Shown here piece by piece: positions 37,831 to 44,500 of a DNA stretch of 64,000 nt. The DNA comes from Candidatus Cloacimonadota bacterium (GTDB taxonomy: Bacteria > Cloacimonadota > Cloacimonadia > Cloacimonadales > TCS61): the NCBI GenBank assembly GCA_030621085.1, contig JAUXIJ010000001.1, forward strand, positions 9,809 to 73,808. The letters run 5' to 3'. The position numbers were made by a program, and so were the translations under genes. The notes below the pieces were generated by a model. That model did not search any database, had not been told where the DNA came from, and saw nothing but the letters and a program-made list of their open reading frames with translations. Position 1 is the stretch's first letter, and each line of letters starts with the position of its first letter.

Positions 37831-37939
37831 AGCAACTCCCATGTAAATGAGTACGCAGTCACCGAGTTTAAAGTCAGTGAAATATTGTCAAGGTTTTTTT
37901 GGTTTAGTAATGTTTTAGGCTAAAGGTTGCTTGAAAAAG

Positions 37940-38116
37940 CTATAAATTAAATTCTTTGATCTTTCTGGCCAGGGTATTGCGATGAGTACCCAGTATTTTA
38001 GCAGCTTTCAACTGATTGTCGTCGCAACTATCAAGCACTTTCCTGATATGCTCTTTTTCCTTTCCTGCCAGGATTTATCTTTGATTCTTGTTATCTTCCA
38101 CCAGCAGTAACTGCAT
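37940..38116 (-). pseudogene. Remnant of a sigma-54-dependent response regulator, with the receiver and AAA+ domains deleted
   Basis: The minus-strand ATG at 38116 lies 2 nt after the kinase stop. It encodes MQLLLVEDNKNQR*, a receiver-domain start. In another frame, ...LAGKEKEHIRKVLDSCDDNQLKAAKILGTHRNTLARKIKEFNL* follows immediately; this is a Fis-type HTH C-terminus. About 1.2 kb of a normal NtrC-type gene is missing. Confidence 0.7.
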
Positions 38117-38118
38117 TC

Positions 38119-39771
38119 TTACTCCTGCTTTGCCGGTAATTCGATCCTGAATTCCGTACCTTTCTTATCAGAACTCAGCACCGAGATATGACCTCCGTGT
38201 CCTTCGATTATCTTCTTGCATACTGCCAGCCCGATACCGCTGCCGGATTTTTTCGTAGTGAAATAGATATCCCATATCCGGGACAAGTCATCAGTAGGAA
38301 TCCCGCAGCCGTTATCCTTAATGCTGATCACCAGATTATGTTTTTGCCTGCCAGAGGTGATAACTATTTCCTTCCCGTCTTTGGCAGGGTCGAAAGCTTC
38401 CTGAGCATTCTTGATCAAATTTATCAAAACCTGTTTCAGTAGTTTTTCGTCAAGCGGGAAAATCATTTTCTGCTGAGCTGCAAACTTGATATGAACACCA
38501 GTGGTATTACTATTGAATTGATCAACCACTGCGGAGATGATCCGATTCACATCCACCGGTTGTCGTTGAATATACAGCTGGTGAGAGAGTGATAATAACT
38601 GTTCGACGATCTTGTTAAGCCGCTCCATCTCGGCATAGGAAACTTTAAGCAGACGGTCAAATTCCTCACTCTTTTCTTTCACTTCAAATTCCAGCTTCAT
38701 TCTCTGCAGGATCATATAGATGGAGTTGAGAGGATTTTTGATCTCGTGCGCTACCTCCCCGCCCAGCCGAGCTATATCCACCATTCTCCTGCTGCTGTTC
38801 AGCTCTTCCCGGGAGCGCAGCAGTTTTTTATAATTCCGATAAAAGAGATATTCTAGAAAGAGAGAGAACAGGAATATGAACGAAAAGAGCAGAAGCACTA
38901 CTTTCTTCCTGGTCTGTGCATGTTCAAAACGCTGCAGACTAACCCCCAGTCGGATCACTCCGAAATCGTAGCCTTCCAGTCGGAAAGGGGTGACCGTTTC
39001 TAGGATCTTTCTTTCCTCAAAAATTGTGAAGCGTGAAGCGGTCTGCCGAGAATGAAAGATCTCTTTCAAAAACTCATCATCCCGCAGTCGTCTTAAAGAG
39101 GTTATGTTGGAAGTAGCAGCGATTATACCCAGTGTGTCCTGGATAACTACATAGAGTACCTGCTCAGTCACAGGCATCCGGTCAGAGTTTTCCAGTAGTG
39201 AACCCTCTACAAAATCTATCATACCGGACAGAGATATATCTCTGGTGTGTTCCAAAATAACACTGTCGCTGAGGGCTCCTACAAAATAGTAAGCTGGTTT
39301 TTTCCTGATCATTATCCTGCTGCCGAAAACCTCACCGGAATCAGCCGGCACAGCAACTACTGATGTTTCTCCCACCTGCAGTTCCAGCAGTGAAAGATCG
39401 TGGGGATAAATGTCCTGATAGAGATTGGAATTGATCACACTACCAGCAGGATCGATAAAAGAGAGTTCCTTAAAATCATGTTCCCGGCAGAGCTGCTGAA
39501 GCTGCCGGGTGGTGATCCAGGGCTGATTCTGCAATATTTCAGCAGCCAGTTCCAGTCGTGACATAAGCGTGTTCTCGATCGTTTCGCTGGCGAAAATATT
39601 ATTGATGATCGCTCTTTTCAACATATCCAGATAAAGCTGGTTATGCAGTTTTTCCTCGGTCAGCTGCTGCGAAGTATTCCTGCTCTGGATATAAAGCAGC
39701 GCCAGCCAGCCGCAGATAATGATAGCTGCCAGCAGGATCAGTATTGTTTTCAATCTTTTTTCATTGATCAT
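38119..39771 (-). CDS. Sensor histidine kinase (two TM segments, periplasmic sensor, HisKA and HATPase_c)
   Basis: H-box GEVAHEIKNPLNSI. N-box LINLIKNAQEA. G1 DNGCGI. G2 GSGIGLAVCKKIIEGHGG. Confidence 0.9.
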   Translation of the reverse strand: MINEKRLKTILILLAAIIICGWLALLYIQSRNTSQQLTEEKLHNQLYLDMLKRAIINNIFASETIENTLMSRLELAAEILQNQPWITTRQLQQLCREHDFKELSFIDPAGSVINSNLYQDIYPHDLSLLELQVGETSVVAVPADSGEVFGSRIMIRKKPAYYFVGALSDSVILEHTRDISLSGMIDFVEGSLLENSDRMPVTEQVLYVVIQDTLGIIAATSNITSLRRLRDDEFLKEIFHSRQTASRFTIFEERKILETVTPFRLEGYDFGVIRLGVSLQRFEHAQTRKKVVLLLFSFIFLFSLFLEYLFYRNYKKLLRSREELNSSRRMVDIARLGGEVAHEIKNPLNSIYMILQRMKLEFEVKEKSEEFDRLLKVSYAEMERLNKIVEQLLSLSHQLYIQRQPVDVNRIISAVVDQFNSNTTGVHIKFAAQQKMIFPLDEKLLKQVLINLIKNAQEAFDPAKDGKEIVITSGRQKHNLVISIKDNGCGIPTDDLSRIWDIYFTTKKSGSGIGLAVCKKIIEGHGGHISVLSSDKKGTEFRIELPAKQE

Positions 39772-39782
39772 TATAACTTCCT

Positions 39783-40757
39783 TTAACGCGTCAAGATATC
39801 AAATTGGAATTTTAAACCAGCAATAAATTCAAAGGCGATTTCATCATCTACGTCTGTGGTCTGATAGAATCCCTTGGCATAGGTCATACAGCCATCTGCC
39901 CAGAGCCAGTCCGCATAGAAGCCTGCCAGAAGACTGATCTCAAAGTAGGGCCATTCCACCGCGGTTGACAGATAATCTTTGCTGGTAAGAGCGAGCCAGG
40001 GTTTGCCTAATAGATTACCTTTTTCCATACTATACTCAATACTGAATTTATGCATATTATAAGAAAAGAGATCGTATAATTCTTCGCTGGGATAGAGTAG
40101 TTGGTTTCCCTTATACAGATTATGGTTGAGAAAGTAGGACAGGTTCAATCCGGAATAATCACCGACCGGGAAAGAGAAGGTTATTTGATAATTAACCATC
40201 AGCAGTGGAGAGTTGTCTGCAAAATGTTTGGTGGCAGCATTAAATTCATGATGCACGTTATAGGTTTCCAGGAATTTTTTAGTGAGGAAATAGGCGTTAA
40301 ACTCCAGGTTGGAAAAAGCATCGTTCCCGGGAAAAGAACTGTTTCTGCCCCGAAGGCCATATTCGCTGAAAGCGGTTGAAGATTCATACTGATCAAAAAA
40401 CTGGGCAGTGATATGTCTCACATCCAGGCTGTCTTTTTCATCATCCAGACAGCGTCCGGATATGCTGAAACTAAAGAGTGGTAAAGTGCGCTCATAGATC
40501 ACACCGGTCTGCCATTTGGACAGTGAATCCAGACTTGCAAATAAATAGACCGAACCATCTATTGCAAGTCTGGAAACCGGTGTCTGCAGCTCAGTGGAAA
40601 TTGTGGTAAATAGTTCTCTTTCCGACTTCTCTGCAAACCTTTTTTCCAGGTGCAGCCCGCTGCCTGCTTCCGTAAATATGAGCAATTCCTCGGTTGTCTG
40701 AGCAAATGATGTAATGCAGGCAAACAGGAGCAGTATAAAAAGCTTTCTAACTGCCAT
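39783..40757 (-). CDS. Hypothetical secreted protein, putative OM beta-barrel
   Basis: Signal peptide MAVRKLFILLLFACITSFAQ. Aromatic-rich alternating strands. The start overlaps the upstream stop (TAATG). Confidence 0.5.
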   Translation of the reverse strand: MAVRKLFILLLFACITSFAQTTEELLIFTEAGSGLHLEKRFAEKSERELFTTISTELQTPVSRLAIDGSVYLFASLDSLSKWQTGVIYERTLPLFSFSISGRCLDDEKDSLDVRHITAQFFDQYESSTAFSEYGLRGRNSSFPGNDAFSNLEFNAYFLTKKFLETYNVHHEFNAATKHFADNSPLLMVNYQITFSFPVGDYSGLNLSYFLNHNLYKGNQLLYPSEELYDLFSYNMHKFSIEYSMEKGNLLGKPWLALTSKDYLSTAVEWPYFEISLLAGFYADWLWADGCMTYAKGFYQTTDVDDEIAFEFIAGLKFQFDILTR

Positions 40758-41119
40758 TACCTCCCACCGCTGTCGGAGCCTGGTCCAGGTTGCCTATTTC
40801 GACGATCCCGACCACTTTGACCATTTCGCCATTCACGGCAGGAACCGCTGCGGAAAACCTTTCCGGAAAGCTGGCGGTTGCGATGCCAATGACGATGTCT
40901 CTCTTGGAAATTGCGATCGTCTGCTATACCGTCACCGTCCTTATCTACAAAAACATCTTTCTCTGTTTCTTCCGTATCGTTCTGACGGATCTTTTCACGG
41001 ATTCTGATCCTCTCTCTCTCCTGCAGTTTTATCTGCTCTTTCGTCTTTACCCGCAGTGAATCTTCCGCAAAGAGGGTAAGGGCAAAAAGCATTAAAAGTA
41101 CCATAATTTTGGCTTTCAT
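40757..41119 (-). CDS. Small secreted protein (charged helical N-terminal part, DKDGDG motif, His/Arg-rich tail)
   Basis: GAGGAG RBS. Signal peptide MKAKIMVLLMLFALTLFA. It is the first gene of the operon. The C-terminal R/G-rich third looks unusual. Confidence 0.5.
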   Translation of the reverse strand: MKAKIMVLLMLFALTLFAEDSLRVKTKEQIKLQERERIRIREKIRQNDTEETEKDVFVDKDGDGIADDRNFQERHRHWHRNRQLSGKVFRSGSCREWRNGQSGRDRRNRQPGPGSDSGGR

Positions 41120-41257
41120 ATCTACTCCTCTGACAAATTTCTCTTTGTCGATTTTTTTTAGGCAAGTTTTTTCTTTATAAATTTTAGGGCAGGAAAAAGA
41201 GATGTTCTTCCTGCTTTAATTTACCTTGCACCTCTATTTTTCCTATATTGAAACAGA

Positions 41258-41273
41258 AGCAAGCAGTGTGCCA
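41258..41273 (-). promoter_or_regulatory. Sigma-54 (-24/-12) promoter
   Basis: The minus strand reads T-TGGCAC-ACTGC-TTGCT, a perfect match to the core consensus TGGCAC-N5-TTGCW. It lies about 140 nt upstream of the ATG at 41119. Confidence 0.65.
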
Positions 41274-41359
41274 AACGGGCAACATGTTGACATATAAGAA
41301 ATTAAATAGAATCAGCACCTGAGGTTTTGCCCTCTTCTAGGACAAGAGAACGCTGCCTT

Positions 41360-41376
41360 TGCACCATATTAGTGCA
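41360..41376. promoter_or_regulatory. NtrC-type enhancer-like inverted repeat
   Basis: TGCACCA-TAT-TAGTGCA, against the NtrC-type consensus TGCACCA-N3-TGGTGCA (one mismatch). It is centred about 98 bp upstream of the -24 element on the minus strand. Confidence 0.4.
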
Positions 41377-41569
41377 GCCTGGATGAAGAGAATAAGAAAT
41401 TTTTTTATTTTTTCATCCTGATAAACTTAATCTCTGCCGGTCAGTTGCTTTAGAAAATGCAGGCTGAATTGAGTGAAAAAAAAATGTAGCAGTTTGACTT
41501 GACACAATGAATTTGTCATAAAAAATAACCCGGTTTAATAAGAGAAAAAATTCTGAAAAAGGGATTTTA

Positions 41570-44500
41570 ATGGCTTTTGTTCATTTGCATAACCACACGC
41601 AATACAGTTTATTAGATGGTGCCTGCCGTGTAGATAAAATAATAGCAATGGCTAAGGAGTACGGTATGCCGGCGGTAGCCATGACCGATCACGGCAATAT
41701 GTTCGGAGCCATCGACTTTTATACAAAAGCCAGAAAAGAGGGTATCAAACCGATCATCGGTATGGAAACCTATATCATCAGCGGTGAGCTGGATTCTCAA
41801 GCTTCCAAAAAGGAGATCCGACACCATCTCGTTCTACTGGTCCAGAACCTTCAGGGCTATAAGAACCTGATGAAACTTACTTCCAAAGCTTATCTGAAAG
41901 GTTTTTACTACAAACCCAGGATCAATAAAGAACTTCTTAAGAAATATTCGGAAGGGTTGATATGTCTTTCTGCCTGCCTGAAAGGAGAGATCCCTCATCT
42001 TCTGTATAACAAGAAAATCGAACAGGCCCAGGAAGTTGTAAATTTTTATAGAAAGACTTTCCCTGAGAGATTCTACCTGGAGATCCAGGATCATGGGCTG
42101 GAAGAAGAGAAAATCGTGCAGCCTCTTCTGATCAAACTGGCTCAGGATACAGATACTCCCCTGGTTATTACCAATGACTGCCATTATCTCAAAAAAGAGG
42201 ATGCCGAAGCTCACGATGTGCTGCTCTGTATCCAGACCGGTAAAACCTTTGCCGATACCAATCGGCTCAAATACAATACGAACCAGCTCTTCTTTAAATC
42301 TGAAGAGGAGATGAGAGAACTTTTTCCCGAGTTGGAAGAAGCCTACGAGAACACTATAAAGATCGCAGCTGAAATCGATCTGGAACTGGATTATAAAGAA
42401 TTTCTCTTTCCCAGCATTGAAATTCCGTCGGAGTTTACCAGTGCCAAAGAGTATCTTAAAAAACTTTGCTACAAAGCGGCAGAAGAAAAATATCCTCAAA
42501 TGAACGATGAAAGTAAAGACCGCATCGATTATGAACTGAGTATGATCAACAAGATGGGTTATAATGAATATTTTCTGATCGTGAAGGATTTTTGTGATGC
42601 AGCCAGGCAGATGAATGTACCCGTAGGACCGGGACGAGGTTCGGTAGTGGGTAGCGTGGTTTCCTACCTGCTGGGTATAACTCAGATAGAGCCGCTGCAG
42701 TATGGACTATTCTTTGAACGCTTTCTCAATCCCGATCGGATCGGTATGCCCGACATCGATATTGATTTCTGTGCCGAAGGACGCAGTAAGATCATTGATT
42801 ATGTTATTAAAAAATACGGACGCGAGAGCGTAGCCCAGATCATAACTTTCGGCACCCTGGGTGCCAAATCTGTGATCAAGGATGTGGCACGGGTGATGGA
42901 AGTTCCTGCTACCACTGCCAACGAGATCACTAAACTTATTCCCTCAACTCCCCGGATCACTCTGGAGGAAGCGCTGCGCCAATCCAAGGAATTTGCCCAC
43001 AAGATGGCAGAAGATGATGTAAAAGCTTCCATCCTGACCTATTCCAAAGTTCTGGAAGGTCTGGTGCGTCATATCGGAGTCCATGCAGCCGGAGTTGTTA
43101 TTACTCCCGGTAAAGTCAGTGATTATGTTCCCCTGGCTACCAGCAACCAGAAAAACGGTGAGCTTTCCGTTCTGGTACAGTACGAAGGAAAGTGGCTGGA
43201 AGATCTGAAAATGCTGAAAATGGATTTCCTTGGTTTAAAGACGCTGACGCTGATCAAGAAGACAGTGAAACTGGTAAAACAGTCGCAGGGAAAAGATATA
43301 GATATTGCTCAAGTTGATATTCATGATAAGGAATCATACGAACTTCTCTCCCGGGGTCAAACCGACGGCATCTTCCAGTTTGAATCAGCCGGCATGAAGA
43401 AATATCTGAGCAGTCTGAAGCCGAATGTTTTTGAAGATCTGATCGCTATGGTTGCTCTCTACCGTCCGGGACCGATGCAGTTCATTGACAGTTTTATCAA
43501 CCGCAAACACGGTCGCGAACGAATCTCTTATTCTCATCCTCTCACGGAAAGTGCTCTAAAGGAGACCTACGGGGTTTCGGTTTATCAGGAACAGGTGATG
43601 CAGATAGCCCGGGAGATGGGTGGACTAAGCGGGGCGGAAGCTGACACTCTCAGAAAAGCTATTTCCAAGAAGAAGTTGAGCACCATGGAAGAGCTCAAGG
43701 TCAAATTCGTGGAGGGAGCTTCTCAGAATGGCGTTAAACCACAGATAATCGAGAAGATCTGGACAGACTGGCTGGATTTCGCCAACTATGCCTTTAATAA
43801 AAGTCATGCCACAGCTTATGCTTTCATTGCCTTTCAAACAGCCTACCTGAAAGCACATTTCCCGGTCGAATTCATGGCAGCCCTGCTCTCGCTGGAAGAT
43901 AATCCCAGCAAGATCCCTTATTTCATAGATGCCTGCAAGGCGATGGATATCGAAGTTATGCCGCCCAATATAAATTGCAGCAGGAAAGAGTTCGAGGTAC
44001 ATGGCAAAAAAATACTCTTTGGACTGAAAGCGATCAAGAACGTAGGCAGTGCGGCGATCAGATCCATCATTACAGATCGTGAAAAAGACGGTGCTTATAA
44101 GAACATCTTTGAGTTTGCTATCCGCTCCGATGCGATGTGTGTAAATAAAGCAGTATTGGAAAGCCTGATCATGGCCGGTGCTATGGACGAATTAGAAGGC
44201 AACCGCGCTCAGAACTATGAAGCTGTTCAGATGGCTCTGGACTATGCTTCGGAAGTGCAGACTGAAAAGCGCCGTGGGCAGATGATGTTTTTCGATACGC
44301 TCGGTGCCGATGGTTCGGAAGGTGATTATAAACCGGAACTTCCCGATGAGCATGAATGGGCACTGAACAGAAAGCTGAAATGTGAAAAGCAGATCCTGGG
44401 TTTCTACTGGTCAGGTCACCCGCTCAGCCAATATCAGAAAATGCTAGATCTTTTTATCAATACAAGCACGGAAGATGCTGGATACAATCCGGAAAAAGTA

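Follow-up and report, generated by a model that had tools for sequence, protein, structure and literature searches.

The operon and its control region

We analysed a 64,000-nt window (contig C160, positions 9809-73808) of a Cloacimonadota MAG with a genome of 3.19 Mb, 36% G+C and 184 contigs. On the minus strand of this window, three genes stand in a row behind a control region, which lies in the intergenic region that separates them from the divergent dnaE gene (Table 1). The dnaE gene has a good sigma-70-type promoter of its own on the plus strand (TTGACA-16-AAAAAT, 41499-41526), a stretch of the same intergenic region that is 100% conserved.

Table 1. Features of the operon, its leader, its control region and the regulator remnant (positions in the window)
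Feature	Position	Strand	Details
Distal enhancer dyad TGCACTAATATGGTGCA	41360..41376	.	starts 103 nt upstream of TGGCAC; centre near -121
Proximal degenerate dyad TGTCCTAGAAGAGGGCA	41328..41344	.	start 71 nt upstream of TGGCAC; offset from the distal dyad 32 bp
Conserved mid block TTTAATTTCTTATAT	41292..41306	-	alignment peak in 11 loci; ends 18 nt before TGGCAC
Sigma-54 -24/-12 element TGGCACACTGCTTGCT	41258..41273	-	only exact match in the window; conserved in 13 loci
Leader hairpin GCAGGAAGA...TTTTTCCTGC	41189..41214	-	leader fold z = -2.9
Conserved leader block CTTGCCT-N20-AATTTGTC	41132..41166	-	adjoins the gene 1 ribosome-binding site on its 5' side
Gene 1, 120-aa secreted protein	40757..41119	-	signal peptide, DKDGDGIADDRN motif, His/Arg-rich tail
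Gene 2, 324-aa predicted outer-membrane beta-barrel	39783..40757	-	AlphaFold pLDDT 85, pTM 0.77
Gene 3, 550-aa sensor histidine kinase	38119..39771	-	HisKA and HATPase_c
Regulator remnant	37940..38116	-	in-frame fusion of the first 18 codons to the final 41 (HTH_8)

The product of gene 1 has no match among the Pfam and NCBIfam families. In the window only, the gene carries a 1-nt insertion in a G-run (40757-40800), and its product ends GGR-stop, as against GGGNGG-stop in four orthologues. The 45 nt before the insertion are, in this genome only, unusually diverged and Arg-rich. The structural model of the gene 2 product is all-beta, with about 16 strands, and its Foldseek matches to the OmpG, Occ, PorB and TamA barrels are generic (TM about 0.5); according to this model, the protein is an outer-membrane barrel. 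The barrel family is rare, with 18 homologues among 5.8 billion proteins, and the barrel is present in 9 of the 62 genomes of the taxonomic family. In the kinase, two transmembrane segments flank an external domain of about 260 aa, which is followed by HisKA and HATPase_c. A TetR-led operon begins 277 bp past the kinase; the conserved TTGACAATATTTCACTGACTTTAAACTCGGTGACTG upstream of the TetR gene (37860-37905, minus strand), which is kept in genomes that do not have the sigma-54 operon, is probably the TetR promoter and operator.

For comparison, we used a set of 13 homologous loci, consisting of the window and 12 further loci that encode a homologue of the barrel. Within the genus, the barrel is 89% identical to that of the window in L050 and 77-85% identical in L024, L025 and L026; in the more distant loci, the identity is 62-65% (L033, L054), 58-60% (L051, L055, L056), 47% (L043) and 23-26% (L027, L028). 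The gene order of the operon is ORF1, 120-aa secreted protein, barrel, kinase and NtrC-family response regulator. ORF1 has been lost in this genus and is absent from all of its members; in other genera, it has the promoter on one side and a terminator-like hairpin on the other. The ORF1 products are secreted proteins of 95-149 aa that are CarboxypepD_reg-like in several genera. Examples (L033 3275-3560; L051 5119-5568; L055, L056 and L028) are either 95-aa Asn/Ser/Tyr-rich proteins or CarboxypepD_reg-like proteins of 140-150 aa. The comparison suggests that, where ORF1 is present, the sigma-54 promoter chiefly boosts ORF1.

The operon as a whole can also be missing. In five species of the same genus (L065 in G004, and L066-L069 in G001, G006, G003 and G002, respectively), dnaE adjoins the TetR operon across a spacer of about 170 bp, and no trace of the sigma-54 operon was found between dnaE and TetR in these species. 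The absence of ORF1 across the genus and of the whole operon from five species indicates that the module is dispensable and has been lost repeatedly. We consider it likely that the control region at 41258-41376 belongs to an accessory envelope operon of the Cloacimonadota.

Transcription is predicted to start near 41247, giving a leader of about 128 nt, in which an Rfam search found no known RNA element. The same hairpin as in the window leader is found in L033 and L054 at the 3' side of a 95-aa ORF, where it is accompanied by a U-tract; the window hairpin has no U-tract. To judge from this comparison, the leader hairpin is a relic of the terminator that lies 3' of ORF1 in other genera. Closer to gene 1, the conserved leader block contains the dyad GACAAA-N6-TTTGTC. 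In the form CTTGC(C/T)T-N17-20-AATTTGT, the block is kept down to about 60% barrel identity, including in lineages that have ORF1 and its terminator upstream of it, and it could serve as a further promoter, as an operator or as a hairpin that acts on translation.

The sigma-54 promoter and its enhancer

The minus strand at 41274..41258 reads TTGGCACACTGCTTGCT, and the promoter element within it (41273..41258) matches the consensus at 16 of 16 positions with exact spacing. The pattern TGGCAC-N5-TTGCW occurs once in the 64-kb window, as against 0.04 occurrences expected from shuffled sequences (4 of 100 shuffles gave one match). The original prediction had read a perfect TGGCAC-N5-TTGCT core at this place, about 140 nt 5' of the first gene, and both parts of this description are borne out: the core is perfect, and the -12 GC lies 140 nt from the ATG (41119). 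The gene for sigma-54 itself, on which the prediction depended, is present and uninterrupted (rpoN on contig C161; Sigma54_DBD, 169.7 bits; open frame of 486 aa), and a sigma-54 interaction domain, the mark of enhancer-binding proteins (EBPs), is encoded by about 13 genes of the genome. A scan of the genome with TGGCA[CT]-N5-TTGC[AT] gave 14 sites, several of which adjoin EBP genes, and a relaxed scan gave 62; the site at this locus is among them. In all 13 loci, TGGCA(C/T)-N5-xTGCT stands ahead of the operon, with no variation in GG, GC or the flanking T positions.

The plus-strand sequence of the distal dyad (41360..41376) is TGCACCATATTAGTGCA, and its minus-strand sequence is TGCACTAATATGGTGCA. 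This inverted repeat is unique in the window (0.02 expected). Its core, TGCAC-N7-GTGCA, occurs at two sites in the genome, where about 1.2 would be expected; the second site falls within a coding sequence. Of the 62 relaxed sigma-54-like sites, the one at this locus alone is preceded by such a dyad within 250 bp. For Salmonella, PMC4987338 gives the NtrC enhancer consensus TGCACC(A/T)4TGGTGCA; the distal dyad agrees with it at 16 of 17 positions, the A/T centre among them, just as predicted for a site one position away from the classical one. The dyad had been placed about 98 bp upstream of the promoter; the upstream position is right, but the centre-to-centre distance is about 102 bp.

The enhancer that was predicted as NtrC-like is borne out by its conservation in the 13 loci, but it probably consists of two dyads 32 bp apart, of which only the distal one had been noticed. 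The window copy of the proximal dyad has three mismatches to TGCAC/GTGCA and one to the form found in the genus, TGCCC...GGGCA; only one of the two dyads in the window is strong, the distal one being perfect and the proximal one degenerate. Another candidate for a second dyad, GGCAA-N8-GTGCT (41329..41312), was dropped because its spacing is wrong; the conserved proximal dyad is at 41344..41328.

We scored the positions of the dyads on the 11 loci that align on TGGCAC and treated the two most distant loci (L027 and L028) separately. A dyad with 0-2 core mismatches was found at the distal position (-100 to -103) in 10 of the 11 TGGCAC-anchored loci, and a dyad with at most two core mismatches was found at the proximal position (-69 to -71) in 8 of them. 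The consensus over the loci is TGC(A/C)C-N7-G(T/G)GCA, and where both dyads are present they are 31-33 bp apart. Each of the two most distant loci has a single perfect dyad, at -73 and -75. The spacer that holds the control region is conserved less than any other part of the locus, with 72-80% identity in 200-bp windows even within the genus, and a local alignment of the 11 loci has four conservation peaks, which correspond to the two dyads, the mid block and the -24/-12 element. Two copies of TGC(A/C)C-N7-G(T/G)GCA, 32 bp apart, are likely to be the DNA site of one clade of NtrC-family regulators.

The mid block has the family consensus CTAAC(T/C)CCTTATAT, is kept 18 nt from TGGCAC throughout the homologous loci and may reasonably be regarded as a site for an architectural protein or for bending. 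An AT-rich tract at this place had been put forward as a possible bending site; the tract contains this specific block, which is more than AT-rich sequence, and the genome has 64% A+T in any case. A look-alike of the block, CTAAATCTTTATAT (C45, about 41570-41583), stands at the same offset from an unrelated sigma-54 promoter of this genome (C45:41601). A candidate IHF site in the window, TGTCAACATGTTG, which matches 8 of the 9 specified positions of WATCAANNNNTTR, was rejected as a defining element because, on inspection by eye, it is not conserved in L025, L026, L050 and L033. A perfect match to the IHF consensus is present in L024. The genome has two or three genes of the HU/IHF family, from which HU and IHF cannot be told apart.

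Neither the promoter nor the distal dyad of the window shows any visible decay. There is strong phylogenetic-footprint evidence that the element at 41258..41273 is a genuine, evolutionarily conserved sigma-54 promoter with a two-site enhancer of the NtrC type.

The regulator gene and its remnant

In every relative with enough contig (L024, L025, L026, L033, L043, L027, L028, L051, L053 and L055), a gene begins 2-5 nt past the kinase and encodes a protein of 438-446 aa composed of REC, Sigma54_activat, AAA_lid_14 and HTH_8 domains. This regulator is the best-conserved gene of the operon (61-89% identity), and in L024 its domains score 99 bits (Response_reg), 234 bits (Sigma54_activat) and 52 bits (HTH_8). 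The relatives' operons thus encode the cognate AAA+ activator, whereas in this genome 59 codons with a stop are all that follows the kinase. A tblastn search of the whole genome with the intact regulator found nothing above 41% identity besides this stub, and the recognition helix HRNTLARKIK was found in no paralogue in the genome. The claim that the operon no longer encodes its own EBP is therefore correct for the operon, and it can be extended to the assembled genome, from which about 3% is missing and which has no orthologue elsewhere.

The remnant reads MQLLLVEDNKNQR-stop-ILAGKEKEHIRKVLDSCDDNQLKAAKILGTHRNTLARKIKEFNL-stop in a single frame, which is the frame of the ATG; after the first stop it begins ILAGKEKEH, and it ends KEFNL before the final stop. 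In the window copy, codon 14 is a TAA (38077..38075). The junction contains a single copy of CTGGCAGGA (38071..38063), a sequence that occurs twice in the intact genes of L026 and L033, at codons 16-18 and again about 41 codons before the end. The presence of two copies in the intact genes and of one at the junction indicates that about 1.14 kb was deleted between 9-bp direct repeats; by this comparison, the event was in frame and cost the regulator its codons 19 to about 397.

The same deletion is present in L050, where codon 14 is GAA and the frame stays open to the end of the contig (a 59-codon frame, L050 3689-3856). The window and L050 stubs have the derived changes K10, K19 and D32 in common, and each has damage of its own in the HTH, namely I>T together with the stop in the window copy and L>P in that of L050. 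The scar and a 450-bp promoter region are identical, base for base, in JGI 3300040952, SRR14923480, SRR14923491 and SRR14923484, and the occurrence of the same scar in four independent assemblies indicates that the deletion is real and fixed in the sampled population.

Between the window and L050, the stubs differ at 7 of 168 nt (4.2%), as compared with 27 of 215 4-fold sites in the kinase (12.6%; p = 0.004), and similarity along the locus is mosaic. The deletion allele may be younger than the divergence of the kinase and have spread by recombination; alternatively, the stub may have been constrained for a time. The dN/dS values between these two deletion lineages are 0.19 for the kinase and 0.26 for the barrel, which is indistinguishable from the values of 0.18-0.34 in lineages that keep the regulator. 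We saw no lineage-specific relaxation of selection on the kinase (branch counts of 0.178 for the window and 0.170 for L024).

A second damaged EBP gene lies in the window at 22252-23718 on the plus strand, following an ORF of 1150 aa. It encodes an N-terminal sensory region, an AAA+ domain and an HTH, with one in-frame TAG inside the Walker A motif, and it brings to two the number of damaged EBP genes within 16 kb.

Present state of the circuit and comparison with known systems

Sigma-54 polymerase in its closed complex depends on an EBP that hydrolyses ATP; when its concentration is low, the EBP works by binding the enhancer and looping the DNA (PMC4987338; PMC2709558). In the ancestral circuit, the kinase would sense a periplasmic or envelope signal and phosphorylate the regulator. 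The regulator would bind the two dyads, with centres near -121 and -89, oligomerise and loop the DNA, possibly aided by the conserved block near -60, and its use of ATP would open the closed complex at TGGCAC-N5-TTGCT. The induced operon would include the two-component genes, which would amount to positive autoregulation. In this species and its sister lineage, a repeat-mediated deletion removed most of the activator gene, and the window copy later gained its stop codon. The window promoter could presumably still bind sigma-54 polymerase, but without the cognate activator, and whatever expression the downstream genes still have would be due to some other source. We put the probability of this reading of the control region as a whole, that is, a conserved sigma-54 promoter and enhancer whose cognate activator has been deleted, at about three in four.

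As to what the promoter does now, we lean slightly toward the view that it is silent or nearly so. The original prediction had the promoter driving the operon. For the relatives this can be accepted by inference, but the loss of the activator makes it doubtful in this genome. The intact kinase and barrel, with dN/dS values like those of the lineages that keep the regulator, argue against an operon that has been silent for long. This argument from selection is weakened, however, because the stub is less diverged than the 4-fold sites of the kinase and the locus is mosaic, so that the divergence of the kinase may predate the deletion.

A promoter that is independent of sigma-54 could lie in the leader block (41166..41132) and keep the genes alive, in which case the sigma-54 promoter would have been an inducible boost, chiefly for ORF1, and would now be dead. 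A positively autoregulated two-component operon needs a basal promoter, the block 5' of the 120-aa gene is conserved across lineages and stands, in other genera, downstream of ORF1 and its terminator-like hairpin, and such a promoter would account for genes that are intact and constrained. However, the hexamers of the block fit TTGACA/TATAAT poorly, and a scan of the intergenic region for sigma-70-type promoters found no site on the minus strand, only the dnaE promoter on the plus strand. The block, with its GACAAA-N6-TTTGTC dyad, could also be an operator or a translational hairpin, and selection on a kinase that has lost its regulator would be left without explanation. We regard this second promoter as less likely than not. 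Selection on the kinase and the barrel, which is as strong between the deletion lineages as elsewhere, would instead be expected if the circuit had been rewired, with the promoter and enhancer served by a non-cognate NtrC-family regulator that is phosphorylated by the orphan kinase or acts from solution, and with the operon still inducible. Neither the -24/-12 element nor the distal dyad is damaged, and the genome has about 12 other EBPs, several of them at contig ends without a visible partner kinase. Enhancer-independent activation is documented, activators being able to work enhancer-free at high concentration (PMC2709558), so cross-activation by other EBPs is possible. Yet no paralogue is more than 41% identical to the lost regulator or has its recognition helix, the dyad is unique in the genome, so that no other regulator is known to use it, and the low divergence of the stub in a mosaic locus means that much of the kinase divergence may predate the deletion allele. 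Rewiring of this kind seems to us unlikely. We give still less credence to a broader scheme in which, after loss of the activator, selection kept the kinase, barrel, promoter and enhancer in a module served by a non-cognate EBP or, for a time, by the in-frame stub as a DNA-binding-only regulator; if true, the role of the stub would account for its being about three times less diverged than the neighbouring neutral sites. The estimates for a silent promoter, a second promoter and a non-cognate EBP are not mutually exclusive.

It is also conceivable that the motifs arose by chance or that the regulator is missing through an artefact of assembly. Short motifs can arise in 64 kb, as they did in the 4 shuffles that gave a promoter match, and a genome in 184 contigs invites caution. 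But the promoter and the dyads recur at fixed positions in 13 loci from several genera, four independent assemblies agree on the scar, a diverged sister lineage shares it, and repeats of 9 bp are far shorter than assembly k-mers. We regard chance or artefact as highly improbable.

The preferred reading, a conserved promoter and enhancer with a deleted activator, adds a well-supported sigma-54 promoter and enhancer annotation for the Cloacimonadota; a full-text literature search for Cloacimonadota and sigma-54 together found no paper. The locus exists in three states within one genus (complete, activator-deleted and wholly absent), and it offers a natural experiment in the decay of a positively autoregulated two-component operon and in the persistence of an orphan kinase and an orphan enhancer. 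Genome annotations should mark the operon as one without its activator and should treat the 59-codon stub as a pseudogene.

The control region most resembles that of enteric glnAp2, at which the two strong NtrC sites are centred at -140 and -108, 32 bp apart. Here too, two dyads about three helical turns apart, the distal one matching at 16 of 17 positions, stand upstream of TGGCAC-N5-TTGC, the relatives' activator has the REC-AAA+-HTH_8 layout, and the operon includes its own two-component genes. In contrast to glnAp2, the enhancer is nearer to the promoter (-121/-89). As a membrane sensor that has a large external domain, the kinase differs from the cytoplasmic NtrB, and the relatives' regulator scores 400 bits against an equivalog cut-off of 559 for NtrC. 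The regulon, unlike that of NtrC, would be a single operon of envelope proteins, because the dyad is unique in the genome, and not one of nitrogen assimilation.

The likeness to zraP-zraSR that had been pointed out extends to the layout and is an analogy only. Both systems combine a small periplasmic protein, a membrane kinase and a sigma-54 response regulator with a sigma-54 promoter under that regulator, and the kinase core and the relatives' regulator match the ZraS and ZraR models, the regulator also matching structure 1ojl. However, the genes here form one co-directional operon that includes a barrel gene, whereas the promoters of the Zra system are divergent. In the Pfam and NCBIfam scans, the 120-aa protein falls outside the ZraP and CpxP/Spy families, and the scores are far below the cut-offs (172.5 against 479 bits for the kinase as ZraS; 385.2 against 760 for the regulator as ZraR). 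The best NCBIfam scores are those for AtoSC, with 180 bits for the kinase core as AtoS and 420 bits for the relatives' regulator as AtoC, but the cut-offs are 646 and 714 bits, the AtoS PAS domain was not detected here, and the cargo genes are unrelated. Among solved structures, the nearest full-length homologues of the lost regulator are NtrC4/NtrC1 of Aquifex aeolicus (4l4u, E = 2.5e-90), which have the same three-domain layout, although they come from another phylum, have other targets and are related only as generic members of the family. Because the defining features of the NtrBC, ZraPSR and AtoSC systems were looked for and are lacking, the locus is, as far as its sequence can tell, a member of none of them. 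What it shows is conventional sigma-54 biology from a phylum that has been little studied, together with a natural knockout of the activator.
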